A DNA stretch of 64,000 nt from Escherichia coli O157:H7 str. 2011EL-2287 (GCA_000614405.2 GCA_000614405.2_3612.1); one strand, 5' to 3'. Counted from the first letter of the stretch, positions 6,566-58,765 are shown. A program made the numbers and translations. Notes: generated from the sequence alone by a model not told the origin.

Positions 6566-9500
6566 ATGCTTCCAATCCCTTTGCTAAAACTTGGTCGTCA
6601 TTTCCTCGATAAGAGGGGTGGAATTAAGGAACTTGCTGTTCTGTCATACCCAATAGACAACAGTGATGGTACAAGCAACACAGTATCCTATGTAAATAGC
6701 TTAGCTATACTTTTTGATGATGGTCAGCTTAATATTACTGGCTATAATAGGTTCGGAGAGTGTCGGACTGGAGATCTTGATACAATAAACTATCCTAATG
6801 AGGCAGCTTGGAACGTAGACCATGTTTGGAGAGCTGACCGTGCATTTGTAATCCGCACATTCGATAATAAATTTTTCTATATTGGTTGCACAGCTGGTCT
6901 TATCGGATCGGAGGCAGCAGGTGGAAACGATGTTTGTGTCAGAGAGTGGACACCTTTGCCGGAACAGATCGTAACAGGGTTGCATTTGGACACCCATCCT
7001 GAGAGACTTGTTGAAGTAATGGGTGGCGTAAACAATACAGTGTGGGTAATTGCTGCACCAGAGGCTGATGGTATGCTTCACCTGTACGGCTCTGGCAATA
7101 ATACTTACGGCTCTCTTCATGTTGACAAAAGTCAACACGCTACTCCAGTTAAGATAGGTGAAACATCTGAAAGTCCAGAGACAGGTCCTTGGAAAAATCC
7201 AAGAATTAATTGTGAAGTTCATGACAACTCGGTTATTTTTGGTGGTCCTAACGGATTCTGGATTGCAGGTTATGATTTCTTAAGAAATAACAGCAAAAAC
7301 ACACTAGTTTATCCAGCCGAGCATGTGACTCTTGACCAGTTTAAAGGCATCCCGGTGGGCGAGACATGGAAAGGGTTCATGTGTGGACCTAATGGTGCAA
7401 TTATAGCCACAGAAAGGATGCACAAACCTGATGACCAACAGCTTGTTAATGTGTTTTATGGTCAGGATGTTTGGGGTGACGACACGTGGAGAAGCCTTAA
7501 CATCACCTATACCCATGAAGTAATTATGGCTCGCGGGTACGGGACTAGTGGAATTTTCTTCAATAATGGTACAAAACAGTACCGTGGTTTCTCCAGAAAC
7601 CTGTGTAACGATATTGGTGCTCAATCTGCTAATAATAGTCCTAGGGCCAATTTTATTCATTACAGAGCGCTGGCAACAGCTAAGTTTGTTGAACAGACAG
7701 AGCCAGTAAGCTGGACAGAAAGCGTTTATTTTCAAGGGATCCACAGGGAAGGTTTCTTAGGCACATTCTGTGTGGTAAATGGAAAGCTTTGGTGGTCAGG
7801 AATACCACGTGGTAGTTTTTCAGGATCTAATAACCTCTTTGGCGGCAGACTTAACAGCCAAGGGTTCACAGAGATTCCGGAGAATTGGTATAAAAATGTC
7901 CCGGTAGATAGCTGGGGTATCGAAGACATCTTTGATGTCAATGGTGTGAGCAATGTTAGCAACATTTACATCGGAGATACTGTCAAGATGAAATTGAAAC
8001 CTCAGCCGGAGGGTGCTACGTTCATTATTGACAAGATTGAGTTGGTAAATGCTGCAGGCACTGTTGTTACAGATGCAAACTATCAGTTCTCCACTAACTG
8101 GAACCATGGTGGTGCTAACGAAGTTGTGGTCACCCAGTATAACCGTAACATCAACAGACGTGGTTTGTATTCTATCAAGATCACCTACCATGACAAGCAT
8201 GGCACTGGAAGAACCTATACGACAAGGACTTTGAACTGGAACACTATAGTTCCTGCGTATCCGTCCAACGGCAAGTGGCATACCGTTGGTAGAAACAAGC
8301 AGTTCCATGTTAACGATACTGTATACTTTGGGCTGAATGGGACCCAGCCTGCAGTAGAAGGGGATACATCGTATATGGTCAGACTCCACAGAATGGATGC
8401 TGGATCAGTCACTTATGATGTGACCCAAGAGATCTACGATCAAAGACGCGCCACGTATGACAATATTGTGAAAACACAAGCCTTGTGGGAGTTCAATCCT
8501 AATGGCAAGGGTGGTAAAATGTTGCAGGTTAATGAGCAGAACGGAACGTCGTTGACTGTTCACGAACACCCAGACCCTTGGCCTGATCCTGGAAAACCTC
8601 ACCCGGGAGCTCGTACACTGAAAATTGTCAGCCATGATGCAGGATATTTCGGAATACGCTGGGAAGCTACAGTAAGATATGTCGACGGGACAACAAACAA
8701 CATAGGGATTACACTTGGCGGCACTAGTGAAGATAACTCGCTGAAAATTGCCTACACGCCCAGAGGTATCTCTATTGATAATATGGATGTTGTTCGCAAT
8801 GGCTACGGCGATGTGAATGTCAAAGTTACTCTTGGCGAACATCTTGGTGGGGAAAGGATCATCATGTATGCCTTTGATCATGATCCACGCACCAATGGAA
8901 CTTATGCAAATCAGGCATGGAGTTACCTGATAAATGCACCTGAGCCGAATACTAAAGAGTTCTACTATGGTATGAAGCGAGATGTGTGCAAGAAAACAGG
9001 AACACATGACTGGATTGCTATCTGCGTTAAAGATGAGCGCACAGCTTGGGATGAGCCTGTTAACAGATGGTTCATAGGTATTCCTACCAGAAGTGATAAG
9101 TATGTCGCAGAATATATTGTATGCATGGGCGGTACCAACCTAAACATGTGTTGGAACGAAGATGTAAACAAATACTCTGATTATGACTATATGAGGGATT
9201 ACTCTTGTAATTTGTGGTTTAACCAAACTACAGGTTACCCTCCAAGACAGGCAAGGGTAAATCCTGCAATCTTTACAGATACTCAGGTTTTCTTGACAAA
9301 ACAGGCAAACGAGGTTCAGACCTTCAAGAATAACTATGACCCTAACAAGTGGTTCTATAATTGTTACGGGGCATACTTTTGGGGGCCTGCTGAACTGCCT
9401 GACAGCGGTTCTTGCTTCGAGGCTGCAACCTACGGCAGCGACTATATCATGGGACAGGTCAAGAAGTACAAGATGATCCCAGGGCCTGAAACTTTAGGTA

Positions 9501-12202
9501 ACGCTGTTGACCCATACATAAATTTCGCAGCTTTGCATGCGAATATGGATGGTGCAAGGTATCCGTTCGACGTTCCAGTTGCCAATGGGTACAAACGTGT
9601 TGTGATGATCATTAAGTGCGACCTGATAGGTAAACAAGTTCTTGCAGAAAACGGGACATCCACACATCCTTTTGAGATCGCTCTGCACTATCAGTTTGCT
9701 GACTCACCTTTTGCAGGGGATAAGAGAATATCTGATACAGACGCACAGCGTTGTAAGAAAGTATTGTTGGGTGCAGGTTGGTGGTGGTATGAGTTTGATT
9801 TAACAGATAAGTTCACAGATGATACCAAGACTCTCACAGGTATCCGTCTGGATCTTGGTGAGAACATGCACAAAGCTGTTTGTGATGGCACCTACGGTGA
9901 TCCTACAGTATACTTGAAGTATGTCTCTCTTGAGCATCCAGAGGATGCCGTAATCGGTCCTAAACTGAAATTATTCGGCGCATGGATTGCCAAGGATAGA
10001 GTAGGTATGGGTAAGAAAGTGAGAGGATTCCTGATAGATGCAGGAACAGAGGACATGCTGGTTAATGCAGTGTGGCCTACGCTAGAAGGAACTGCCTACA
10101 ACAATGCAGCCAGGTCTATAAATTGGTTCAACATTCACAGAGCTATGTGGACTACCAACTGCTACTTGTGGAGAGAGCTCAACGATCAGGCCTTTGGCTT
10201 TAGTAACGGCAGAAGGATGGCGATCATCTGCTGGACAACACTGCAAAGATGTTATGACCATGACTACGAGATTGGCGGTAGAGCATGGAAAGATATCCGA
10301 GATAGAATCATATACAATTTTGCAGATGATAATGGTGGCGGGGCATATAACTTTGGCACAAGCCGACTTATCCACTTGAACGGATCTTCAGCCTACAAGA
10401 AAGAAGGTTACTCTGGATCCATGATCGAGTGGGGTCTGGTGAAAGATGCTCGCGTATTGATGGGCCAGCAACTTGCTGCCGCAATAGGTCCCAGCGCAGT
10501 GCAGTCGGTTAAACCAGCGTGGTTTGATATTCCATTGTGGTCACCCGGAACACCGGGAACTGCTGCAATCAACCCTACCACTGGGGATCTAGAAATCTCC
10601 TGGGAGGACTTGAAGCAGGTCGGCGGTTGGGACAAAACAGGGTATCAGGTTCAGTGGTGGAGAGCTGATGGATCTTTAGCTGCTGATGAGTTTGTTAAGG
10701 ACAATTTCTACACTATGTCCTCTGCAAAAGCACAGCAATTATTTGGTCAGGCCACTCCGTCAACAATCACCATGTCTATGTGCTGTAAAGACAACAGGAC
10801 TGGAGCTTTGGGGCCAAGGGTTGCTAAGGTTTTCTCAGGTATTAAATGGAATCTTCCTGTTCAAAGTGTTTCATGGAAGCAAATAGGTGATAACAAGCTG
10901 CTGGTTACCCCTGCCTGTCAGTTCAACGCAACTCTTAACGTTAATCCTGCTGTTGCGGCAAACTCAGCTAAAGCTTCTGACTTCTCTGTGTCTAACACCG
11001 CTATGGCAGATGTGAGGAAGATTGACACACTGAACGCCAGAATTACCTGTAAAAACACTTATGGCACATTCCAGATCATCAACAACTTCACAGATGCTGA
11101 TTCTAAGGTAGTGAGGACAGCAAGCCAGACTTTGAGTTTAGGAACTCTGGCCTATGCGGCCCTGATCACTGAACAGTCGGCAACACTCCAAGGAGGTGGT
11201 GTAGGCAAGTCCATTACAACACCTGTGTGGAAGCCAAATGAGTGGGTTGTGTTTGATTTGACTGTGGACTTCTCCAGCGATAATAACTGGACATGGGTAA
11301 GGAATTGTTTGTCACAGTTGATGGGCGGTCCAAGCTCCGTTAGTGATAGTCACGACTCTACTGACCCGAGTGTGTTCCAGGTAGGTAAAACTCACCCAGA
11401 GACTGGAGAAACGTTGCCTGACAGGAAGTATGCTTTGGTTTGCATCTCTTACGGAAAAGCAGATGTCACCTTCTCAGGGACACACACTTATAACGGAACT
11501 TACAACTTCTCAAGGAAGTATAGTCTCAAAGCAGGGAACATTATAGACGAGGTTGGTGTGCTGTATAATCCGGGCAACGGCATAGGGATTGTTGGTGGTA
11601 AACTGCAGATGCAGGAACCTTCTATTACCCCTTCCAACGTAGCCGGGATTAGAAAGACTTGGGAAAGTAGTAATACCAACATTGCAACAGTGGATGCCAC
11701 CACAGGACTGGTAACATTTAAAGCTACTGGGAATGTCACCATAAAGTTTGTAGTTACTGATGATGCAGGGCGCAAAACGTCTTCAACATCTTTTACTGTC
11801 AAACAGATGGCACCACAGTGGAGAATGTGGATAGGTACAGCAACAAACGGGGCATACCCTAATCCGGCAGGTACTTCTGGTATGAAGACTTTCTCTACAA
11901 GCAAACCGATGGAGTACGGCAGCGGTCCTAAGGTAGGGCAGATGGTGTACTTTGGTGCGTATATTCCTGAAATTATAGGGCTTCCGAGAAGTCAGCTTCA
12001 GTTGCTGTTTGGGGCTGGTGTTGACGATCTTGCCACTTTCGGGTATAGCGACAACATCGAGGCTGCAAGGAGTTCAGGATGGGTAGGGTTCAGAATGGAG
12101 CCTGGAAAGGAAGGCAGGATTCTAGGGACAGCCTCTATAGGTGTTATGTTCCCTGGTGACCAGCAGTATCGTCTAGAAGCCTACGCAACCTTTTCTCGTT
12201 AA
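6566..12202 (+). CDS. giant virion/tail-associated protein with Ig-like (Big_2-type) domain
   Basis: 1878-aa ORF; Ig-like segment (TWESSNTNIATVDATTGLVTFKATGNVTIKFVVTDDAG); N-terminal Gly-rich repeats; last gene of late operon. Confidence 0.55.
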   Translation: MLPIPLLKLGRHFLDKRGGIKELAVLSYPIDNSDGTSNTVSYVNSLAILFDDGQLNITGYNRFGECRTGDLDTINYPNEAAWNVDHVWRADRAFVIRTFDNKFFYIGCTAGLIGSEAAGGNDVCVREWTPLPEQIVTGLHLDTHPERLVEVMGGVNNTVWVIAAPEADGMLHLYGSGNNTYGSLHVDKSQHATPVKIGETSESPETGPWKNPRINCEVHDNSVIFGGPNGFWIAGYDFLRNNSKNTLVYPAEHVTLDQFKGIPVGETWKGFMCGPNGAIIATERMHKPDDQQLVNVFYGQDVWGDDTWRSLNITYTHEVIMARGYGTSGIFFNNGTKQYRGFSRNLCNDIGAQSANNSPRANFIHYRALATAKFVEQTEPVSWTESVYFQGIHREGFLGTFCVVNGKLWWSGIPRGSFSGSNNLFGGRLNSQGFTEIPENWYKNVPVDSWGIEDIFDVNGVSNVSNIYIGDTVKMKLKPQPEGATFIIDKIELVNAAGTVVTDANYQFSTNWNHGGANEVVVTQYNRNINRRGLYSIKITYHDKHGTGRTYTTRTLNWNTIVPAYPSNGKWHTVGRNKQFHVNDTVYFGLNGTQPAVEGDTSYMVRLHRMDAGSVTYDVTQEIYDQRRATYDNIVKTQALWEFNPNGKGGKMLQVNEQNGTSLTVHEHPDPWPDPGKPHPGARTLKIVSHDAGYFGIRWEATVRYVDGTTNNIGITLGGTSEDNSLKIAYTPRGISIDNMDVVRNGYGDVNVKVTLGEHLGGERIIMYAFDHDPRTNGTYANQAWSYLINAPEPNTKEFYYGMKRDVCKKTGTHDWIAICVKDERTAWDEPVNRWFIGIPTRSDKYVAEYIVCMGGTNLNMCWNEDVNKYSDYDYMRDYSCNLWFNQTTGYPPRQARVNPAIFTDTQVFLTKQANEVQTFKNNYDPNKWFYNCYGAYFWGPAELPDSGSCFEAATYGSDYIMGQVKKYKMIPGPETLGNAVDPYINFAALHANMDGARYPFDVPVANGYKRVVMIIKCDLIGKQVLAENGTSTHPFEIALHYQFADSPFAGDKRISDTDAQRCKKVLLGAGWWWYEFDLTDKFTDDTKTLTGIRLDLGENMHKAVCDGTYGDPTVYLKYVSLEHPEDAVIGPKLKLFGAWIAKDRVGMGKKVRGFLIDAGTEDMLVNAVWPTLEGTAYNNAARSINWFNIHRAMWTTNCYLWRELNDQAFGFSNGRRMAIICWTTLQRCYDHDYEIGGRAWKDIRDRIIYNFADDNGGGAYNFGTSRLIHLNGSSAYKKEGYSGSMIEWGLVKDARVLMGQQLAAAIGPSAVQSVKPAWFDIPLWSPGTPGTAAINPTTGDLEISWEDLKQVGGWDKTGYQVQWWRADGSLAADEFVKDNFYTMSSAKAQQLFGQATPSTITMSMCCKDNRTGALGPRVAKVFSGIKWNLPVQSVSWKQIGDNKLLVTPACQFNATLNVNPAVAANSAKASDFSVSNTAMADVRKIDTLNARITCKNTYGTFQIINNFTDADSKVVRTASQTLSLGTLAYAALITEQSATLQGGGVGKSITTPVWKPNEWVVFDLTVDFSSDNNWTWVRNCLSQLMGGPSSVSDSHDSTDPSVFQVGKTHPETGETLPDRKYALVCISYGKADVTFSGTHTYNGTYNFSRKYSLKAGNIIDEVGVLYNPGNGIGIVGGKLQMQEPSITPSNVAGIRKTWESSNTNIATVDATTGLVTFKATGNVTIKFVVTDDAGRKTSSTSFTVKQMAPQWRMWIGTATNGAYPNPAGTSGMKTFSTSKPMEYGSGPKVGQMVYFGAYIPEIIGLPRSQLQLLFGAGVDDLATFGYSDNIEAARSSGWVGFRMEPGKEGRILGTASIGVMFPGDQQYRLEAYATFSR

Positions 12203-21302: not shown

Positions 21303-21572
21303 ATGTTATACCAGCAATATGAACTTCGTGCAGAAAAAGAGTTAAATTTTGACAAAGATATTCACAGATATTATTATGGGAAAGTTAGAGGGCAAGCAAG
21401 AAAGTGTACTCCAACACTCTTTTATGCCAGCAGACGACTAGCGCCAGAAGAGGCAACAGCAGAAAGGGTTGCGTACAACTGGAGAGTCACGTATGATATT
21501 GACAGATTCGATGTGATATCTGTTTTGGAAAACTTTGAAAACACTTACACACAAGTAGAGGACTTTTACTAA
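21303..21572 (+). CDS. hypothetical protein
   Basis: ORF in operon. Confidence 0.4.
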   Translation: MLYQQYELRAEKELNFDKDIHRYYYGKVRGQARKCTPTLFYASRRLAPEEATAERVAYNWRVTYDIDRFDVISVLENFENTYTQVEDFY

Positions 21573-22756
21573 TGTCAAGAAACGTATTCGAAAGTGGTCA
21601 AATCACTGTCCGTGAGTTGCCAGCTATTATTCAGTTTGCCCAACGTCATAGCCGATCTGTCCTAATTTTGGGACCAATGGGTGTGGGTAAAAGCCAGGTG
21701 ATGAAGCAGATCGCTGATAATATGTTCGGTGAGCGAGATGACAACCTTGTTGACGTGCGACTGTCAGATAAAGATCCTGCCGACTTATCTGGGCTACCTA
21801 TCCCTGTAGAAGCGGATGGAACTACACGTACAGTGTTTGCAATTCCAGAATTTTGGCCTGCGGATCCTGACTGGAGCGGAATTATCTTTCTGGATGAGCT
21901 CACTCATGCAGATAACTACCTGCAAAAGGTTGCAATGCAAATTATGCTTGACCACAAGTGCGGCACCTATGCATTCCCTAAGGGTTCTGTTTTTGTGGCT
22001 GCGGGTAACCGTTCTACAGATGGTGCGGTTCTTTCGGCGCTCGAAGCCCCTCTGGCTAACCGTTTTATCATTGTAGAGGTTACAAGCAATGCAGAGGTGT
22101 TTATTGAGGACTACGCATTCCTCAACGGGGTTCACTCCTCTGTGATTGGGTATCTGAAAAGAGTTCCATCAGCTATTGATAATTATGAGGCTATGGCTGA
22201 GATTAATTGTCCATCTTTTGCCACACCACGATCTTGGGTTGCTGCATCTGACATCTTGCACGATTTTGACAGCGGTATTATTTCTGACGCTATGGCCCGT
22301 GTTCTTCTGCAAGGTGCTATTGGTCACACTGCAGCGGTAGAGATCTGGACATACCACACCAAGAAACGCAATTTACCGGAAATCGGTCGGATTATGGCAG
22401 GTGGCTGCAAAGAATACATGGGTCCTAAGCAGCCAGACATTTTGTGGATTCTTGGATCTGAAGGTTGTATCGCTATTCGTAACATGATGGAAAATGCAAG
22501 TATCTCAGACGAAGATCTTGTCAGCTGCGTGGCAAACTTCCTAGATTTCCTTTGGGAAAACTTCAAGGACGAGAACCGAGATTTTGTATTCTCAGTCTTT
22601 ATGGCGATGATGAAACCTAATGCCTTAGGAAATGCCTTGCTTATCGGTAAAGGGCGTGACAAGATTGTTGCTCAGCTGATCAAAGCATACCCAAACCTGA
22701 TGAAGATTGTAAAAGAGTTTGGTGAAGAGTTTAGCGCCATTTTGGCTAAAGCTTAA
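21572..22756 (+). CDS. MoxR-type AAA+ ATPase
   Basis: Walker A GPMGVGKS, Walker B IIFLDELTHA, AAA_5-like organisation. Confidence 0.75.
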   Translation: MSRNVFESGQITVRELPAIIQFAQRHSRSVLILGPMGVGKSQVMKQIADNMFGERDDNLVDVRLSDKDPADLSGLPIPVEADGTTRTVFAIPEFWPADPDWSGIIFLDELTHADNYLQKVAMQIMLDHKCGTYAFPKGSVFVAAGNRSTDGAVLSALEAPLANRFIIVEVTSNAEVFIEDYAFLNGVHSSVIGYLKRVPSAIDNYEAMAEINCPSFATPRSWVAASDILHDFDSGIISDAMARVLLQGAIGHTAAVEIWTYHTKKRNLPEIGRIMAGGCKEYMGPKQPDILWILGSEGCIAIRNMMENASISDEDLVSCVANFLDFLWENFKDENRDFVFSVFMAMMKPNALGNALLIGKGRDKIVAQLIKAYPNLMKIVKEFGEEFSAILAKA

Positions 22757-22765
22757 GGGGGTTGT

Positions 22766-23146
22766 ATGGCTAAAGTAGGTAAGCGGGGAAACTACCTGGT
22801 GGTATTGACCGAGGAGCCGGAGAAGGAGTACGAATGCAGCTCCACTTGCGTGATCGATATCCGAGAAAAAGATGTAGATGAAATCTGGTTTAAAATATTG
22901 GACGCTTGCGATAGCAGTGATTATTTCTTCATCTATGTCAACGATAAGGCTGGGTTCTTCCATGACGACGGAGAGTTGCCGTATGAAATCTATGAACTTG
23001 TAGAGGCTTGCCATCGTGGAGATGCGGAGTTGTTTGGCTTACGGCTGAAAAGCGGTAAATTCTTCTATCAAGATGAGTGCATGAATCTTCATAACTTTGT
23101 AGAGGGAACTTGCAACGATGGAGAGATTTTGGCACACTACGATTAA
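22766..23146 (+). CDS. hypothetical protein
   Basis: ORF with RBS, ends before terminator. Confidence 0.4.
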   Translation: MAKVGKRGNYLVVLTEEPEKEYECSSTCVIDIREKDVDEIWFKILDACDSSDYFFIYVNDKAGFFHDDGELPYEIYELVEACHRGDAELFGLRLKSGKFFYQDECMNLHNFVEGTCNDGEILAHYD

Positions 23147-23156
23147 TTTCTAAGAC

Positions 23157-23187
23157 CTCCCCCGCTTCGGCGGGGATTTTCTATTTG
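23157..23187 (+). terminator. rho-independent terminator
   Basis: Hairpin CCCCCGC-TTCG-GCGGGG followed by ATTTTCTATTT. Confidence 0.55.
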
Positions 23188-23195
23188 GAGTTATT

Positions 23196-23696
23196 GTGAA
23201 AATTAAGATCTTTGCTATTATTTTGAGCGCATTTTTATCGCTGCCTGTTGTTGCAGCACCAAAACAAAAAGTATATCATACTTGCAAGCCCTCAGATACT
23301 AAGGAAAACATTCTGGCATGCAATATCTACAGGGAGGCTAGAGGGGATGGCACGATGGGTATGCTGGCATCCGGGTTTGCCACACTAAACAGGAAATCTC
23401 ACCCCAAATACCCAGACACTATAAGAAAGATTGTCTACCAACCTAACCAGTTTTCGTGGACAAACCACGGCAAAACTTTTAAGGTGACAGAAAAAGATTC
23501 ATGGGATCACGCTAAAAGTCTTGCAAAGATGCTTCTAAAGGTCTATAATAACAACCATGTTGCATACATGGCTATGGACATAACAGGTGGAGCAACACAC
23601 TACCATACAACCAAAGTACGACCGAAATGGGCAAAAAAGATGCAGAGGACAGCTCAATTCGGGAGTCATATCTACTACAAGGAGCGCAATAAATGA
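23196..23696 (+). CDS. secreted SleB-like cell wall hydrolase (Hydrolase_2 family)
   Basis: GTG start with RBS; N-terminal signal peptide (MKIKIFAIILSAFLSLPVVAAP); motifs NIYREARGD, ATLNRKSHPKYPDTI, QPNQFSW. Confidence 0.7.
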   Translation: MKIKIFAIILSAFLSLPVVAAPKQKVYHTCKPSDTKENILACNIYREARGDGTMGMLASGFATLNRKSHPKYPDTIRKIVYQPNQFSWTNHGKTFKVTEKDSWDHAKSLAKMLLKVYNNNHVAYMAMDITGGATHYHTTKVRPKWAKKMQRTAQFGSHIYYKERNK

Positions 23697-25675
23697 TTGT
23701 AAACAGTAATGAAACTAAAGCAGTACTAACCGGAAATATGGAGGTCACCAGGGGCTCAATTTCTCTGAACAAAGAGACTTTTGGGCTAATCATTAAAGGG
23801 ATTTACGAAGATAAGGTGCTGGCAAGCTGCCGTGAACCAATCTTCAATGCTGTGGACTCCCATGTTGAGTCTGGACGGGGTGATGTACCGATCATCATTC
23901 ACTCCCCTACAGACCTTGAACCATACTTCTTTGTGCAGGACGTTGGATTGGGCATGTCAGAAGAGATGGTCCGCAACACTTTCATGAACCTCGGGGAGTC
24001 AACCAAGCGCAACAGCAACGCTCTGGTAGGTAATAAAGGTGTTGGTTCAAAGGCTCCGTTCAGCATGGTGGACACTTTCGATGTTATCAGTGTGCACAAT
24101 GGTGTTGAAAGCACATATCTATTGTTCTTGGATCAGGGTATCCCAAACGTTACCAAGATCCGCGAGCGGAAGACTGAAGAGCACAACGGGGTAAAAGTTC
24201 AGTTTCATGTTAAGAAAGAGCATGTCCTGAAATATCGCACTGCTATTGCATCGTGCTTACGCTATGCGAAGTTTCCGTTCACCGTCACCGATCCCATGAC
24301 TAGTAAGATGTTAGAAGGTGACAAGGTTGAGGCGCAGTATCGCTACGAGAAAGATGGTTGGAAAATGACTATCCTGAAAGGTTATACCAGCTCTGATGAG
24401 AGCCGTGTGGTGATGGGACACCAACCTTACCGCTCTAAGTTTCTGGAAACATTGACCGATTACCCTGCAATCTGCGTGGAAATTCCTATTGGGGATTGCA
24501 ATATTAACCCTGGGCGTGAATGGACCATAGAGGGCCATGACGACGGTGGATTCCAGGATCGCCTGGAGGCCTTTGTCAAAGAAGGTATACGTCTTCGCGG
24601 GGCAGAAGTTGTTGCAGAACTGGAGACGGCAAAAACCTCCGCAGAAGCACGTGAAATGATGAAGAATAGTGGAGTGTTCGGACACATCTTCGGCAAAAAC
24701 TTTATGTGGAACCGTTGGGAAGAAACAGGGCTTGGCGACTTAGGCGATTGTGAAATTTTCGCTGGCGGCTTAAATAAAGGCCGCATAGGCTATGCCAGTT
24801 ACGGGAAGTCGGAGTTCTTACGAGGCGTATACCTTGTATTTAACGACGGAGACGGCAAATATAACCGAAATAAGTGTAACTACTTAAGCGAGATCACCGG
24901 ACGCAACGTTTTCTATTGCCGTAACACGGATCTGGTGGAAGAGTTTAAAGAAGCGGCACACCACCCGTTCTTTGCAGATACGGTCAAATTGTTATCAGAA
25001 CTCCCTCGCCGACCTGTCAAGAAAGGTGAAACAAAAACTCGTTATGAGCCAGGCTATTGGGTTAAAAAACTTGAGAAGGATGGTTACTTCCGCCGTGAGC
25101 GTATTACTAAGGCAGAGTTCCGGAAGATTAAACACTGCATCCCTTATGAGGGTGATATCCAACGTGGAAGTTGTTGGCTGGGGCAGATGAGTAACATCTA
25201 CCAGCAAGATTATGACCGTGTACGTGCGGCACTTCAGATTCCTGAAGGTGAAGATCTGTATCTGGTATCTGAATCTCGTCTGCTTTGGACTGATCCTGAT
25301 TGCCAGTATGTTACAGAGAAGAATGTGGAGCACCTGTTGAAAGAGGATGCTTGGAAATTCTTACTGACCCGTGCAGCAAATGAGACTTCTTATGACAGCC
25401 TGTATAGACAATTAGGGAAAATTATTCCCATGCAAGATTTTGGAAATTATCGGCCACATTTCCACAAGTGGGAAGGTAACACCACGTGGAAGCACAGTGA
25501 GCTAAATCATCGTGCCAAAATCTTAATCGCCAACCGAGTTAAATGCGGGAAGGCCTATATTGCAAGATTGGAAAAGAAATACCCGCTTTTGAAGCATGTA
25601 GGCTTGAAATATTGGGACACTCCTGCTATGATTGAATACCGTGAACTGATCGATACAAAGAATAACATCAAATAA
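23693..25675 (+). CDS. rIIA-like protein with N-terminal GHKL ATPase domain
   Basis: GHKL boxes: N-box REPIFNAVDS, G1 VQDVGLGMS, G2 GNKGVGSKA; ~660 aa followed by a ~400-aa partner, as in rIIA-rIIB. Confidence 0.55.
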   Translation: MIVNSNETKAVLTGNMEVTRGSISLNKETFGLIIKGIYEDKVLASCREPIFNAVDSHVESGRGDVPIIIHSPTDLEPYFFVQDVGLGMSEEMVRNTFMNLGESTKRNSNALVGNKGVGSKAPFSMVDTFDVISVHNGVESTYLLFLDQGIPNVTKIRERKTEEHNGVKVQFHVKKEHVLKYRTAIASCLRYAKFPFTVTDPMTSKMLEGDKVEAQYRYEKDGWKMTILKGYTSSDESRVVMGHQPYRSKFLETLTDYPAICVEIPIGDCNINPGREWTIEGHDDGGFQDRLEAFVKEGIRLRGAEVVAELETAKTSAEAREMMKNSGVFGHIFGKNFMWNRWEETGLGDLGDCEIFAGGLNKGRIGYASYGKSEFLRGVYLVFNDGDGKYNRNKCNYLSEITGRNVFYCRNTDLVEEFKEAAHHPFFADTVKLLSELPRRPVKKGETKTRYEPGYWVKKLEKDGYFRRERITKAEFRKIKHCIPYEGDIQRGSCWLGQMSNIYQQDYDRVRAALQIPEGEDLYLVSESRLLWTDPDCQYVTEKNVEHLLKEDAWKFLLTRAANETSYDSLYRQLGKIIPMQDFGNYRPHFHKWEGNTTWKHSELNHRAKILIANRVKCGKAYIARLEKKYPLLKHVGLKYWDTPAMIEYRELIDTKNNIK

Positions 25676-25685
25676 GGAGACCAAG

Positions 25686-26891
25686 ATGATTTTCATCTAC
25701 GAACATTTCAAAACTCGTAAAGAAGCACGCGACCGCCGTGCAGAACTTGAGAAGAAGGGTTTCACATGTGCCATTGAGAAAGGTGACACAACCTGGACAC
25801 TGGCAGTGGGTGCCCCAGAATTGTTCGATCCTGACCGTGACAGCGTCTGCTACACCCGTGAGGATTTTGAAACCCGTGAAGAGGCCCGTCTATTTCGATA
25901 TGGGCTGGAAGATAACGGTAAGTACGCCATGATCTTAGACTTAGGCGAAGGTTCCGTTAAACGTTGGGGCGTGATATACCCACTGTGTGTTGTTCACGGT
26001 GTGGGGTTCACCGGGGTGGCAATCAAGTCAGAAGAACCTTTAGTAGAAGTCAAAGACCCGGTGCTGGAGGTGGTGAGCAGTGTGTCTCAGCAACAGACTC
26101 GAAGCATCGAGCCTTTAGTAGTTATTTGTGGGGAACTCCTCCAGATCACCTGCAACGAAGGCATTTTTGAAATTCGCCGCAGCGAAAGTGAGGAAGTTTA
26201 CCAGAAAGTCTTCGACCATATCTCTGTTCAGGAATATGATGAGGCAATTGGTGAAATCCTTGTCTGGCTGGAACGCAAGAATGAGTTCACCACACTTGCA
26301 GACAACCTGATCATGAAAGATGGTAAGCTCTACTACTACGGTGTAGAGATGCGATCCACCATTGCAAAGAAAATTGAGAAAGACTATGCAGACGGAACAC
26401 TGGATGACCGCTATGTGAAATTCCTCGTTCGCCTGCTACGCAATCCTTCTGCAAAATCTGTAAACATGCTCTACGATTTTATGCAGGCCAACGATATCCA
26501 GATTGCAGAAGATGGTCGAATCATTTGCTACAAAGGGGTTCAGTTTAACGGCAGCAAGTGGGTGGATTGGCACAGTGGTAAAGTTCCACAATACCAGGGT
26601 GCTTTTGTATCCATGCCTCGTAACTTTGTAGAGGATGATCCTGAAGCTGCGTGCTCCTATGGCTTACACTGCGCCAGCAAGGAGTATGCAAAGAGCTACG
26701 GCACTGTAATGACTGTCATGGTTGACCCTGCAGATGTGGTTAGTGTGCCATACCAACACAATAGCGCTAAGTGCCGTGCATGCCGCTATGAGATTGTGGT
26801 AGCTCCGGAAGCACGCAAGGACGGAGACCCGATTGAATACGTGGTTGACCGAGACGGTAACACTATCGACATTCTTTACGAGGAGGCGTAA
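25686..26891 (+). CDS. putative rIIB-like protein
   Basis: Assigned by synteny only (immediately downstream of rIIA-like gene, size ~400 aa); no motif verified. Confidence 0.35.
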   Translation: MIFIYEHFKTRKEARDRRAELEKKGFTCAIEKGDTTWTLAVGAPELFDPDRDSVCYTREDFETREEARLFRYGLEDNGKYAMILDLGEGSVKRWGVIYPLCVVHGVGFTGVAIKSEEPLVEVKDPVLEVVSSVSQQQTRSIEPLVVICGELLQITCNEGIFEIRRSESEEVYQKVFDHISVQEYDEAIGEILVWLERKNEFTTLADNLIMKDGKLYYYGVEMRSTIAKKIEKDYADGTLDDRYVKFLVRLLRNPSAKSVNMLYDFMQANDIQIAEDGRIICYKGVQFNGSKWVDWHSGKVPQYQGAFVSMPRNFVEDDPEAACSYGLHCASKEYAKSYGTVMTVMVDPADVVSVPYQHNSAKCRACRYEIVVAPEARKDGDPIEYVVDRDGNTIDILYEEA

Positions 26892-28261
26892 TGGAAAAAG
26901 GGCAGTATGATGTAGGCACAGATGCTGCCCTCGTTGCAATCATGAGCGGTGAGAATGTCTTCGTTTCAGGACCCGCAGGTTGTGGGAAGACGTACCTCAT
27001 CAACATGATCCAGTCAATGTATGGAGACTCTTGCATAACGGTTGCCCCGACAGGGGTAGCCGCTTTAAACGTTAATGGAGCAACAGCACACCGAACCTTC
27101 GATCTTGCAGCAGGTGTGAGCATGGAGTCAGACTGGACCGCAATAAGGGCAAAAACAGCAAAGCCTTTGAAAAGCAAGGCATTTACCATCCTAATTATCG
27201 ATGAAATCTCTATGATCCGTGCTGATAAGTTTATAGAGATGGATAGGAAACTCCGCTTCCTTCGAAAAAATGACAAACCTTTCGGAGGCATACAGGTCAT
27301 ATTGTTTGGCGATTTTTACCAGGCACCTCCTGTTGTCTCTTCTATGGAGAAGGAAGCCTACTTCAACTTCTACCATACGGACCTGTGTTGCTACACCGAA
27401 TCTTGGAAAGAACTTGACCTCCACAACATAGCTCTAATAGATCAGTTCCGACAGGAGTCTATTCGATTTGCCACAATGCTCAACTGTGTTCGTGAGGGTC
27501 GTCGCATAAAAGAGGTTGTAGCAGAACTTAATGCTCGCTGTTACAAAGGCGGTGTACCAACAGACGCTCTCACAATTTGCGCCACCAACAAACAAGCAGA
27601 GGAAGTGAACAGAAGGTTCTATGATGCCATCAACGCCCCAGAGAAGGTATACACTGGTGAAATGAAGGGTAAGTTTCCCTCCACCCTGCCAGTTGAGCAG
27701 GAGATGAAGTTGAAAATTGGCATGAAAGTTATGATAACCGCCAACGATGTTGACCCGACGCACAAAGTACCTTATTATGTTAACGGAACACGTGCCACAA
27801 TTGTTAAATTTAAGAACAAGGCAGTGGTGGTAGAGCTTGAAGATGGAACACAGGTTGACATAGAGCAGAGGTTGTGGGAGAATAACGAGTATAAGCCCTC
27901 TCAGAGATACAACATTGCAGAAAGGAAGATGGAGAAGTTTATAGAGAGGGTAGTGATTGGGTCATACAAGCAACTTCCTCTGAAATCTGGGTACGCCGTA
28001 ACATCTCATAAAAGTCAAGGACTTACTCTAGATTGTTACAACCTAGACCTTGGAAAGAACGGAGCTTTCTCTCCTGGGATGACGTATGTCGCTTTGAGTA
28101 GAGTTAAGACAATACAGGGAATAAACTTGTTGCGTCCACTAAGAGAAGTTGACATTATTGTTGACCCGCGAGTCGTAGAGTTTTACAATACAACATTCCC
28201 TGACTTAGACAAAATTGTCAGGAAAGATTTTGAAACCAGAGCAGAAGAGGGGGACGTATGA
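26891..28261 (+). CDS. dda: Dda-like SF1 DNA helicase
   Basis: Walker A GPAGCGKT, Walker B IIDEISM, GDFYQAPPV, motif VI VTSHKSQGLT; ~456 aa. Confidence 0.8.
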   Translation: MEKGQYDVGTDAALVAIMSGENVFVSGPAGCGKTYLINMIQSMYGDSCITVAPTGVAALNVNGATAHRTFDLAAGVSMESDWTAIRAKTAKPLKSKAFTILIIDEISMIRADKFIEMDRKLRFLRKNDKPFGGIQVILFGDFYQAPPVVSSMEKEAYFNFYHTDLCCYTESWKELDLHNIALIDQFRQESIRFATMLNCVREGRRIKEVVAELNARCYKGGVPTDALTICATNKQAEEVNRRFYDAINAPEKVYTGEMKGKFPSTLPVEQEMKLKIGMKVMITANDVDPTHKVPYYVNGTRATIVKFKNKAVVVELEDGTQVDIEQRLWENNEYKPSQRYNIAERKMEKFIERVVIGSYKQLPLKSGYAVTSHKSQGLTLDCYNLDLGKNGAFSPGMTYVALSRVKTIQGINLLRPLREVDIIVDPRVVEFYNTTFPDLDKIVRKDFETRAEEGDV

Positions 28262-50887: not shown

Positions 50888-51259
50888 ATGGAATTTATTA
50901 TTTTGGCTGTAGTAGTTGCCTTGTTCAACGCCTGGATAGCTGGCAAAATAGGTAGATCCGCTTTTCTATGGTTTGTTATATCTATTTTCCTGGGAGTGGT
51001 TGCAACCATTGTACTAGTTATCCTTGCAATTGTTGACAAGGATAATAATAAGAAGGGTAAAGTATTTTCCGACCTGTATGACGCCCAAACTTTTGTTAAC
51101 GCCTATTATAGTGATCTTCCGGTCTCCTTGCGCTGCAGCCTGGCGCAACAAGTTTTTGATGAGGCTAAAACCAGAGATCAAGCCCATGAGATATGTTTAA
51201 CTGAGGCGGATCGCCTATTTGAGAGGAATAGAAAATATGTGGGCCAGCCGTTTAAATAA
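50888..51259 (+). CDS. membrane protein
   Basis: ATG after AAAAGAGG; two predicted TM helices (ORF track start 50753). Confidence 0.45.
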   Translation: MEFIILAVVVALFNAWIAGKIGRSAFLWFVISIFLGVVATIVLVILAIVDKDNNKKGKVFSDLYDAQTFVNAYYSDLPVSLRCSLAQQVFDEAKTRDQAHEICLTEADRLFERNRKYVGQPFK

Positions 51260-52899: not shown

Positions 52900-53130
52900 A
52901 TGATGGAACAAATTAAACGCGCTGAGGCTATTAATGGCAATGTGATCTATTTTGTCAGCAATAACGAAAAAGGCGTACCATATGCGGCGGTAATAGTACA
53001 GCCTGACGGCGATTATTGGTTTACTGTGTACGGCGCTTACTCTTTTGGGCGTCCAGTGCATGATAAAATTTTGAAAGTAGCGAACCCTACCGGGAAGAAT
53101 ATCACAGCAGAAAAATTTTTTGAAAAATAG
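52900..53130 (+). CDS. hypothetical protein
   Basis: ATG after AAAAGAGG (ORF track start 52873). Confidence 0.45.
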   Translation: MMEQIKRAEAINGNVIYFVSNNEKGVPYAAVIVQPDGDYWFTVYGAYSFGRPVHDKILKVANPTGKNITAEKFFEK

Positions 53131-55782: not shown

Positions 55783-56202
55783 ATGAACATTAAATCTAAT
55801 AATCCGGCATATAGCTTTGATAACGCTTTTTGTCACGGTCCGGCGGCGAAAGGATTCGAAATCGATGGTAAACTAATTATTGTCAATGTTGACGGGGAAG
55901 AGGTTGCAGTATATCCGGTGGCAGACGTAAAAAGCCGTTTACAATGCCGCATTGATGTTACCGCCTATCAGCTTGATCCGGTCCGCATAGTTGCCCTGGT
56001 CCTGGAAGAAGAAATTAAAGCCATGCACCATAGCAACAGGTTTATTGGTGACGCTCAGGATAATATGAAGGTGTGCCGCCATAAAGTTAATGAAGTGCTT
56101 AAAGAGTACGGCTATAAAGATCTTATGATCAAACGTGATGAAAAATTCCGGTACCGTAACGACCTGGCAAATCGGATTTTTGAAATATACGAATCATTAT
56201 AA
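55783..56202 (+). CDS. hypothetical protein
   Basis: RBS AAGAGG; last gene before non-coding region. Confidence 0.5.
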   Translation: MNIKSNNPAYSFDNAFCHGPAAKGFEIDGKLIIVNVDGEEVAVYPVADVKSRLQCRIDVTAYQLDPVRIVALVLEEEIKAMHHSNRFIGDAQDNMKVCRHKVNEVLKEYGYKDLMIKRDEKFRYRNDLANRIFEIYESL

Positions 56203-56220
56203 TTTTTTAACTGAATTATC

Positions 56221-56246
56221 AAGGGGCTTAGGCCCCTTTCTTTTTG
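56221..56246 (+). terminator. rho-independent terminator
   Basis: Hairpin AAGGGGC-TTAG-GCCCCTT + TCTTTTTG. Confidence 0.6.
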
Positions 56247-56854
56247 TCTGATCTTCCCCCTACCATAAACGGCCCTACCTGGCAAGTGGAATAATTGACG
56301 AGCCATCAACCCCACACACTGTACAAATATACATGGAAAATAACTATTGCATAATTTTTCATTGTGTGGTAGCAAGTCCATTTTTACCCGTTTTCTCTCC
56401 CAAAAGTGCACGTAATGCCGCTATTGCACAAATTTTAACCTGATGCACATCTCCAATATCTTGTCAACAACTAAAAATCTTTATAAGTCATACACTTACA
56501 CAGCATCGAAAGCGTGTTCTACGCGAAAAATCGAGTATAACTATAGCCGCCAGATCTCAGAATTCACGTACGCACGCCATTCTATAGCCTGCAAAGTATT
56601 TATTCCAACCACAGAATAACGGAATAGTCAATACCTGCATAAAATAATTATTCGTGTAAACTGCATAACATAAATCAGCTCAGGTGTCAACATTTTTCGT
56701 AAACAGTCCGAAATTATCACGATGAGTTATCATAAACAGAGAAATCTTTAGTCGTCTAATGTTTACTGTACATTACTATATTGACTGGAATCATTAGATG
56801 ACTAATAGAAAGATAAGAAATAATTAACAATACAATTATTTTATCTGTAACAAT

Positions 56855-57052
56855 AAGGCAACTATGCAAACGAATGGCATGGCGCGACGGAGTCGCGACA
56901 TAATATAAAAGCAGTAACCATCACCCCCGTGATAGTTTGTCTGCAATCTATTAATCAGATCATAGTTGCCTTGTATTTAGTTAATCATGACATAACAAGC
57001 AAGGCAACTATAGATCTGCTAATAGTTGCCCTGCTTTTATATTATGTCATAG
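56855..57052. repeat. nested palindromes / inverted iterons (AGGCAACTAT x4 alternating; 18-bp inverted repeat)
   Basis: AGGCAACTAT at 56856 and 57002, inverse at 56962 and 57023; GACATAATATAAAAGCAG (56893) inverted at 57031; GCAAACGAATGGCATGGC repeated at 56865 and 57127. Confidence 0.5.
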
Positions 57053-57157
57053 AAACACCCGAAGGGGTGACCAAAGGTCACCTGGCATAGCCAGTGAAAT
57101 ATTGTAAACAAGTTAATTATTGTCATGCAAACGAATGGCATGGCTTATCATCTCTGT

Positions 57158-57289
57158 GTAAACAGTTTGTTTGTAAACAGTTTATACGTGAACAGTTAAC
57201 TATGTAAACTATTGAGAATGTAAACAGTAAAGGAAGTGAATAGTAAGCGAGTGAATATTAATAGCGTGAATAGTGACAGCGTAAACAGT
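57158..57289 (+). repeat. iteron array: nine 9-bp direct repeats GT(A/G)AA(C/T)A(G/T)T at ~15-bp periodicity
   Basis: Copies start at 57158, 57173, 57188, 57205, 57220, 57236, 57251, 57266, 57281; non-coding context. Confidence 0.6.
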
Positions 57290-57873
57290 CAGGCATGTCA
57301 ATTAAGTCTAAAGTGTCAAAGGTGTCATATTATGTCACCATTATGTCAGACAAGTTTTTCTCCTCTTTGTCAAGTGCTGCATGAAAATTTACAATCTGGT
57401 ATGGTAGCATTTTTGCGGCCCTGTTTACATTCAGTTGTGTATGTATAAGCCTTGTTGTGTGGGCGTTTAGACGTCTAGACGGTTGGAAGTCTACAGGTCA
57501 ATATCTAATCTATTGGTTGCTAACTATATCCCACACAAATAGTAAGAAATATAATTGTTATGTGTGTAAACTGTAACTCATGTTATCAATCCCTGTATGG
57601 ATCGCCAGTGGTGCGCATAATGGGTATTATGTTAAATTGCCCGTAATGATAACAGTTCTCACAATGATAGGTATTCTCATTCACCCCACAAGATAGGTTG
57701 CAAATGTTGTGCCACTGTGTGAACGGCCTCACCTATTAATTTGCCTCACTGCCTCGATATTTGAGAATTATTATAAGAATGAGAAGTATTCCCATTCCGT
57801 CCGCCTGGCAGCACTCCTGTCGGTCAGGTCAAAATCGTGGTAGAATTGGGCCTATTCAGATATTTCTGGCTGA

Positions 57874-58068
57874 CTCTTCAGGTCTGTGTGGGAAAAGCCA
57901 ACCTCTCCGGCGGGGCAGGGGGAGGTCAATTAAAAAATTTACGTGGTGTATGAAGCGCTCTTCAGGTAAGGCAGGTATTATGGGATGAAACCCTCTTCAG
58001 GCAATGATATTTGTGGGTGTGATATTTGCTGGAAAGCCAGATATGACGGGACTCCCGGCGGGGCAGGG
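57874..58068 (+). repeat. direct repeats (CTCTTCAGG x3; CCGGCGGGGCAGGG x2)
   Basis: CTCTTCAGG at 57874, 57958, 57993; CCGGCGGGGCAGGG at 57907 and 58055. Confidence 0.4.
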
Positions 58069-58765
58069 GTAGTACAGACAGGGAAAATATGGGGATGTAG
58101 TTGGGTGAATTGATCGGGCAGGTAGAGTATGGAATATGTTACAAGTATGTTAAATATGGAGGTTGAATATCTGTAGGATTTGTGTGTAAAATCAAAGACT
58201 TAAGGGGTGTTGTGGTATTTTCTATAAATAATTCAAGTTTAATAGGCAATATTTGTCTCTATCCGCTTTGTGTGGTAAACAGATTCAGATTAGATTGGTT
58301 TACAAGTGTATACATAATATACAAATTAAAGATACAAGAAACCCCCCTCCCCCCTTCGGCTACCATTCACCTTTTCCTCTGACTGGTACTTAAACACTTA
58401 TTCAGACTCTTCAGGTTATCACCCATATATCATATGGCAGTGACTGGTGTCCTCCGGCCCCTCTTTCGTCACCCGTCCGCTTCGCCATGCTAATGCCATA
58501 GCTAATGGTTCGGTTGTTCACCCTGTTCACTCAGGTGTATCTCTATACCCCTTCAAACCGAAGAGAACAGAAAACCCGAATTACTCGGTAAAAGAAAAGA
58601 GAAGAACTTAATTTTATCAGGATAGGCAAGAATGTCAAGGCATGACTGCTCACTAAACAAGCAAACAGTCATGTGTGGGAGGTAAGTGATTGTGGTGGTA
58701 GGAAATTTAGTTGAAAGATGTGTTATAGGTGCTTCCAGCACTTTAGCCGGGCAGCTAATTGTGTG

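Follow-up and report, generated by a model that had tools for sequence, protein, structure and literature searches.

Three adjoining genes on a 64,000-nucleotide stretch of DNA from Escherichia coli O157:H7 str. 2011EL-2287 (GCA_000614405.2; the whole stretch is referred to here as the window) encode a SleB-type cell-wall hydrolase and the proteins rIIA and rIIB, and the question they raise is whether the three products act together. An earlier reading, made from the sequence alone, had proposed a lysis or superinfection-control module in place of a canonical lysis cassette. One part of that proposal stands, as no canonical cassette is present at the locus, while the joint module is not supported, every combination of hydrolase and rII being found in sister lineages. 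We consider it about 80% probable that the locus holds two independent functional units, the hydrolase on one side and rIIA with rIIB on the other, which are neighbours by inherited gene order. The useful result is a negative one: gene overlap and adjacency are here no evidence of a joint mechanism. The three genes are as follows.

23196-23696, plus strand: Hydrolase_2 (SleB/CwlJ-type) gene, GTG start, 166 amino acids
23693-25675, plus strand: rIIA, 660 amino acids, ATG start at 23693
25686-26891, plus strand: rIIB, 401 amino acids

The source stretch is a Vequintavirus (rV5-like) coliphage, with 97-99.9% DNA identity over region 22700-27000 to more than 100 Vequintavirus phage records. All three are long open reading frames (ORFs) that match their profiles very strongly and recur in over 100 phage genomes, far more than chance could produce; their coordinates and products in Bas51 and Bas54 agree with the window. 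In annotated relatives (e.g. the Bas51 and EdH4 tables) they are labelled 'cell wall hydrolase / SleB / endolysin', 'rIIA' and 'rIIB'. The genes themselves are not new: over 100 genomes already carry their annotations, a near-identical phage has served to test what rII does, and a signal-peptide-bearing SleB-like hydrolase is described subfamily-wide, with orthologs in all Vequintavirinae genera (Buttimer et al. 2020, PMC7344957). The unannotated GenBank records MG065644-MG065690, named 'Campylobacter phage', are 97-99.9% identical to the window and to E. coli rV5-like phages; their host label looks doubtful.

What separates shared location from shared function is a comparison across lineages of what one slot holds, the slot bounded by the conserved orf126 homolog and the Dda-like helicase.

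Vequintavirus and locus L024: hydrolase directly followed by rIIA-rIIB
Seunavirus SalP219 and Klebsiella K54_rec5: hydrolase, a membrane ORF of 51-57 amino acids, rIIA-rIIB
Certrevirus CR3 and Salmonella phage SSBI34: hydrolase and small ORF(s), rII absent
Uncultured rV5-like L094-L096, L106 and L110: rIIA-rIIB, the hydrolase being absent at a relaxed threshold too

Because all combinations occur in the same slot, the hydrolase and rII appear to be independent units, and the comparison suggests neighbours by inherited gene order, not one machine, with no functional dependence expected between them. The direct hydrolase-rIIA junction is seen only in Vequintavirus and L024, and the published comparison finds rIIA/rIIB in rV5 and PVP-SE1 but not in Certrevirus (PMC7344957). 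Linkage was also counted from both sides, with rIIA sought within 6 kb of the SleB-like gene in 80 SleB-centred loci and a SleB-like gene sought within 5 kb of rIIA in 80 rIIA-centred loci. An rIIA gene accompanied the hydrolase in 13 of the 80 loci, all rV5-like, with two more split by a contig end; the reciprocal count was also 13 of 80 and again confined to rV5-like loci. No SleB-like gene lay within 5 kb in any of the 60 more distant, non-rV5-like rIIA loci, and none of the roughly 65 sampled non-rV5-like SleB-like loci, T5-like contigs included, had rIIA nearby. The phi92-like SleB locus examined shows no rII within 5 kb, and the rII loci of T4, N4-like and Felix O1-like phages have no hydrolase.

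Among the alternatives, the one that survives best holds that hydrolase, rIIA and rIIB form a single lysis-timing or superinfection-control module, whose co-translated products act jointly on the envelope. In its favour, the sequence-only reading correctly saw that the hydrolase gene overlaps the start of a 660-amino-acid GHKL ATPase gene: the junction reads ...AAT AAA TGA, a 4-nt ATGA overlap at 23693, with an AAGGAG about 9 nt before the rIIA ATG and internal to the upstream gene. The remaining junctions are similarly tight, with GGAG at 23187-23190, 5 nt before the hydrolase GTG start, a GGAG-bearing spacer of 10 nt separating rIIA from rIIB, and a TAATG stop/start overlap between rIIB and the helicase. 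Against coupling as a sign of a joint module, start/stop overlaps occur at 15 of the 43 junctions (35%) of this gene cluster in the curated Bas51 annotation, five of them of the 4-nt ATGA type. The overlap is most likely ordinary genome compaction, following the loss of a small ORF that once stood between the two genes. It may help to even out translation of hydrolase and rIIA, without implying a shared mechanism.

That small ORF is visible in the sister genera, where it adjoins or overlaps the 3' end of the SleB-like gene and codes for 51-62 amino acids with two hydrophobic, transmembrane (TM)-like segments (L008 5816-5989, L009 5836-5991, L006 5477-5665); where rII is also present it stands between hydrolase and rIIA, a further point against a joint module. 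A copy was sought in the window and gave chance-level matches only, the best of which (52975-53049) lies in a non-hydrophobic ORF. The small two-TM, holin-like partner of the hydrolase would thus have been lost in Vequintavirus. A small ORF shared upstream of rIIA was rejected as a candidate: T4 rIIA.1, G17 gp37 and the 54-amino-acid ORF of ST-3 are mutually unrelated, and that of T4 is not hydrophobic.

A second point offered for the joint module is that the block lies directly downstream of a conserved hairpin.

23160-23185, plus strand: terminator-like GC-rich hairpin CCCCGC-TTCG-GCGGGG with a T-rich run, between orf126 and the hydrolase ribosome-binding site

No other site in 18.5-30.5 kb is as terminator-like, and the hairpin is unique in the window; the EdH4 record annotates it as a putative terminator. 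Its position directly 3' of the orf126 homolog is kept in Seunavirus (L008), the Klebsiella rV5-like phages (L009), CR3 (L006) and L094, with stems that differ but still pair. In L094 it stands directly ahead of rIIA, the hydrolase being missing, and because it is present there without the hydrolase, the hairpin marks the end of the MoxR-orf126 unit and is not part of the hydrolase gene. A sigma-70 promoter scan gave 24 matches against 22.2 expected, and no promoter could be assigned to the hydrolase-rII block.

The third consideration concerns what the rII proteins do. That the 660- and 401-residue products resemble rIIA-rIIB, as had been proposed from their size and order, is now borne out by the profile searches for these families. 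The rIIA protein matches PHROG 612 'RIIA' over its full length (E 1.5e-124) and Pfam HATPase_c_3 (E 1.8e-8, 34.9 bits, cut-off 25), and finds T4 rIIA by tblastn (E 1e-15). The rIIB protein matches PHROG 609 'RIIB' (E 1.3e-61) and aligns with T4 rIIB in hhalign with a probability of 99.9% (E 1.2e-33; 216 columns, 35% identical), and all homologs carry PF26926 as a precomputed assignment. The domains are placed as follows.

23768-24262, plus strand: GHKL (Bergerat-fold) ATPase domain of rIIA, about residues 26-190, ATP-binding motifs intact
25689-25988, plus strand: rV5-group-specific N-terminal extension of rIIB, two beta-alpha-beta-beta repeats (residues 2-43 and 55-101), weakly SPOR-like
26127-26804, plus strand: conserved RIIB core domain, residues 148-373

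Residues E48/N52/D55, D83-G85-G87 and G113-G116-G118 of rIIA (ExxxNxxD, DxGxG and GxxGxG) do not vary among six distant rIIA proteins drawn from T4, N4-like, Felix O1-like and rV5-like phages, and rIIB lies immediately 3' of rIIA in N4-like, Felix O1-like and other rV5-like lineages as well. Judged by these sequence features, rIIA is a T4-type GHKL ATPase with a predicted intact ATP site, and the rIIB core is orthologous to that of T4. The T4 counterparts differ in detail: T4 rIIA has 725 residues against 660 here, with similarity mostly in the first ~190, T4 rIIB is without the 147-residue N-terminal extension, and no hydrolase stands beside the T4 rII locus. The extension comprises the two conserved repeats and a disordered linker and has no counterpart in T4; a SPOR domain is not claimed for it, the evidence being borderline, and no export signal is found in rIIB.

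Much closer are the rII genes of EdH4, Bas54 and rV5, which have the same order and differ by strain-level substitutions only; the EdH4 proteins show 98% (rIIA) and 97% (rIIB) identity to those of the window, and this phage shares the ATGA overlap with the hydrolase and the upstream terminator. Knockdown of either EdH4 gene by CRISPRi-ART lowers plating only on RexAB hosts (PMC11879866), an anti-Rex role that links these orthologs to T4. By analogy with the near-identical EdH4 pair, rIIA and rIIB of the window would serve as RexAB counter-defence, neutralising the membrane-depolarising abortive infection of lambda lysogens.

This Rex-specific phenotype tells against a joint module, although T4 rII proteins are described in annotation as membrane-integrity protectors, which would suit one. 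The transposon data point the same way. On K-12, bas54_0066 (rIIA) and bas54_0067 (rIIB) are hit at 90/101 and 56/59 TA sites, and their hydrolase neighbour bas54_0065 at 32/36 in HIDEN-SEQ, so that each is individually non-essential. On a clinical isolate that bears the defence system DS-28 the flanking MoxR ATPase (bas54_0063, log2 fold change -7.2) and helicase (bas54_0068, -6.3) become essential, while the hydrolase, rIIA and rIIB do not (bioRxiv 10.1101/2025.11.20.689424). With these results, the frequency of overlaps in the cluster and the absence of linkage in all 60 distant rIIA loci, the argument from physical coupling loses its force, and a joint module is unlikely.

Several points nevertheless weigh against complete independence or against parts of the picture that accompanies it. 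Same-strand adjacency is kept in Vequintavirus, Seunavirus, the Klebsiella rV5-like phages and L024, that is, across at least three genera whose proteins share 35-54% identity, which is compatible with some selective linkage, and both units act on the cell envelope. The scenario of small-ORF loss is inferred from a handful of lineages with no rooted phylogeny. The dispensability of bas54_0065 holds for K-12 and does not speak for other hosts. In addition, the N-terminus of the hydrolase may be a signal-arrest-release (SAR)-type anchor as an alternative to a cleaved signal peptide.

If the two units are independent, the hydrolase calls for an explanation of its own. The traits first noticed in this gene, a GTG start, a signal-peptide-like N-terminus and EARG/LNR/QFS motifs, are all present in the sequence, and its two parts can be delimited.

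23196-23255, plus strand: predicted Sec signal peptide, residues 1-20, cut after V-V-A, called from rule-based features
23346-23678, plus strand: Hydrolase_2 catalytic domain, residues 51-161 (Pfam envelope); the conserved core begins at about residue 38 and includes the predicted catalytic E47

The signal-peptide call comes from a rule-based reading of the n-, h- and c-regions. The N-terminus, MKIKIFAIILSAFLSLPVVA followed by AP beyond the predicted cut, has two lysines (KxK) in the n-region, 18 uncharged residues, proline at -4 and V-V-A before the cut. On these features the hydrolase appears to carry the N-terminal export signal that characterises exported endolysins, and homologs at 43-54% identity keep equivalent signal peptides despite sequence divergence, ending in VLA, ALA and AQA before K, K and E, respectively. 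The protein would be exported by Sec and its signal peptide removed after VVA. Such segments are common in this family: in 71 of 80 sampled environmental phage loci with SleB-like genes (L013-L092), T5-like genomes included, the N-terminal segment is hydrophobic and of Sec type. Sec-exported Hydrolase_2 enzymes are thus widespread in phages of Gram-negative bacteria, and the rV5-like ones, at least, have a separate endolysin as well.

The match to Pfam Hydrolase_2 (PF07486) scores 70.4 bits (cut-off 27) and covers profile positions 2-100 of 100, no further domain being found in the Pfam scan, and the protein also matches PHROG 938 'endolysin' (E 1.7e-27). Its motifs are REARG (residues 46-50), LNR (64-66) and QFS (85-87); E47, L64, N65, R66, Q85, F86 and S87 do not change across six homologs (43-54% identity), and the Cys30/Cys42 pair is likewise invariant in homologs. 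In Bacillus SleB, the catalytic residue is the glutamate of the YGE(S/A)RG motif. The B. cereus SleB catalytic domain 4F55 is matched with E 2.5e-6, and E47 aligns on the glutamate of YGESRGE (4F55/4FET), supplying the residue expected from the Y-x-E-[AS]-R-G signature of Hydrolase_2. As far as sequence can tell, the protein belongs to the SleB-type domain family, is of exported type and has an intact putative catalytic glutamate. Assignment as a SleB ortholog in the strict sense was rejected, the TIGR02869 equivalog model scoring 48.3 bits against a cut-off of 236.5 and a peptidoglycan-binding domain being absent. The phage protein thus shares with the spore cortex-lytic enzyme its catalytic domain and aligned glutamate, but is without the N-terminal peptidoglycan-binding domain, and its substrate would be ordinary Gram-negative murein as opposed to the muramic-lactam cortex. 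It would fold in the periplasm, where Cys30 and Cys42 probably form a disulfide, and by analogy with SleB would cut the glycan strand via Glu47.

An enzyme of this kind might be the phage's real, holin-independent endolysin, exported early and causing lysis on membrane de-energising. The PHROG 938 label, and the 'endolysin' label in several records, speak for this, as do observations in Certrevirus: the ortholog CB7_83 of phage CB7 has a signal peptide and is toxic on expression, CR3_087 has been implicated in lysis, and an overlapping two-TM class II holin candidate follows the SleB-like gene (PMC7344957). The toxicity is also indirect evidence of muralytic activity. The Certrevirus enzymes are orthologous exported Hydrolase_2 proteins (46% identity to that of CR3) in the same position upstream of the Dda-like helicase; there, however, an ORF of 62-65 residues with two TM segments overlaps the hydrolase 3' end and rII is absent, whereas in the window there is no small ORF and rIIA overlaps instead. 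The window therefore offers no membrane partner. As noted from the outset, no holin or spanin gene adjoins the hydrolase; no TM-containing ORF does so in the window, the locus lacks the layout of a canonical holin-endolysin-spanin cassette, and the annotated holin candidate maps to 50888-51256. A distinct lysis system is, moreover, found elsewhere. For rV5, a lysozyme-type lysin distinct from the hydrolase, Gp89, has been named, along with a holin candidate at a distance (PMC3606486), and in Bas51 a separate endolysin, a holin candidate, an i-spanin/o-spanin pair and baseplate lysozymes are annotated, all outside the hydrolase-rII region, with the spanins beside terminase. To this are added the insertions tolerated by bas54_0065 and the position of the gene in an early/middle replication cluster, apart from the late genes. 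A role as the main endolysin is accordingly very unlikely, and the hydrolase is probably an accessory, non-essential wall-degrading enzyme distinct from that endolysin.

Exported endolysins are known from other phages, among them the signal-peptide-bearing Lys44 of Oenococcus phage fOg44 and the SAR endolysins of P1 and phage 21, which act with pinholins. Like these, the hydrolase of the window would reach the periplasm through Sec and without a holin, and the adjacent small two-TM protein of the sister genera recalls a pinholin or class II holin. It differs in its catalytic fold, its dispensability, its place in an early/middle cluster, the absence of a membrane partner in Vequintavirus, and in not being the main endolysin. 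A link to rII could be built on this likeness: the exported hydrolase would be kept in check by the proton-motive force, a form of control known from some exported endolysins, and rII, by preserving energisation against Rex-type depolarisation, would prevent its premature activation. If this were so, the 'rapid lysis' of rII-defective phage in the rV5-like group would depend on the hydrolase, and the weakly SPOR-like repeats of the rIIB N-terminus would hint at a wall-related contact. We regard this arrangement as highly improbable.

The reading as two independent units, with the hydrolase in an accessory role in wall degradation, also fits the wider neighbourhood, which likely is part of an early/middle accessory gene cluster of the phage. 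The block is framed by three syntenic anchors.

21572-22756, plus strand: MoxR-like ATPase, upstream anchor (PHROG 1297 / 12370 matches for the ATPase-orf126 pair)
22766-23146, plus strand: orf126, a conserved ORF of 126 amino acids, upstream anchor (same PHROG 1297 / 12370 matches)
26891-28261, plus strand: Dda/Pif1-like helicase, downstream anchor (PIF1 E 1e-32; PHROG 325 E 6e-112)

The order MoxR ATPase then orf126 is kept in Bas51, EdH4 and L094, and in every sister lineage examined the Dda-like helicase comes next after rIIB or after the hydrolase block. Several DNA methyltransferases lie in the vicinity. Because the orthologs of the flanking ATPase and helicase are depleted on the DS-28 host, the hydrolase and rII are placed in a counter-defence neighbourhood. 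Least credible of all is that the hydrolase serves neither lysis nor rII but an early periplasmic role (wall remodelling, superinfection interference or the countering of envelope-based defence), since the shown or likely counter-defence neighbours (MoxR ATPase and helicase versus DS-28, rII versus RexAB, the methyltransferases) and the spread of exported SleB-like genes in unrelated phages, including T5-like ones with their own endolysin, are set against a PADLOC defence-profile search that gave nothing meaningful, no other profile link, and no host-specific phenotype reported for bas54_0065 in the transposon-mapping conditions covered.

Two further observations concern parts of the genomes outside these questions. 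In L094, which has no close cultured relative, the Dda-like helicase (8243-10612) has 789 amino acids as against 456 and contains a large insertion right behind the P-loop region, with the look of an intein carrying a homing endonuclease.

The other begins within rIIA, where the motif GTAAACAGT occupies codons 3-5 (23699-23707). It was rejected as a signal there, a single outlier fitting chance (0.67 expected per window). The other five copies of GTAAACAGT cluster in a non-coding region at 56.7-57.3 kb, and the surrounding 56200-58700 is ORF-poor, has a GC content of 0.386 and no tRNA, lies at a switch in transcription direction and is rich in short repeats, direct as well as inverted, three 15-nt tandem units at 57236-57285 among them. 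Its counterpart in Bas54 appears to be the intergenic region of about 2 kb that is free of HIDEN-SEQ insertions, and the stretch may be an origin or an essential regulatory region.

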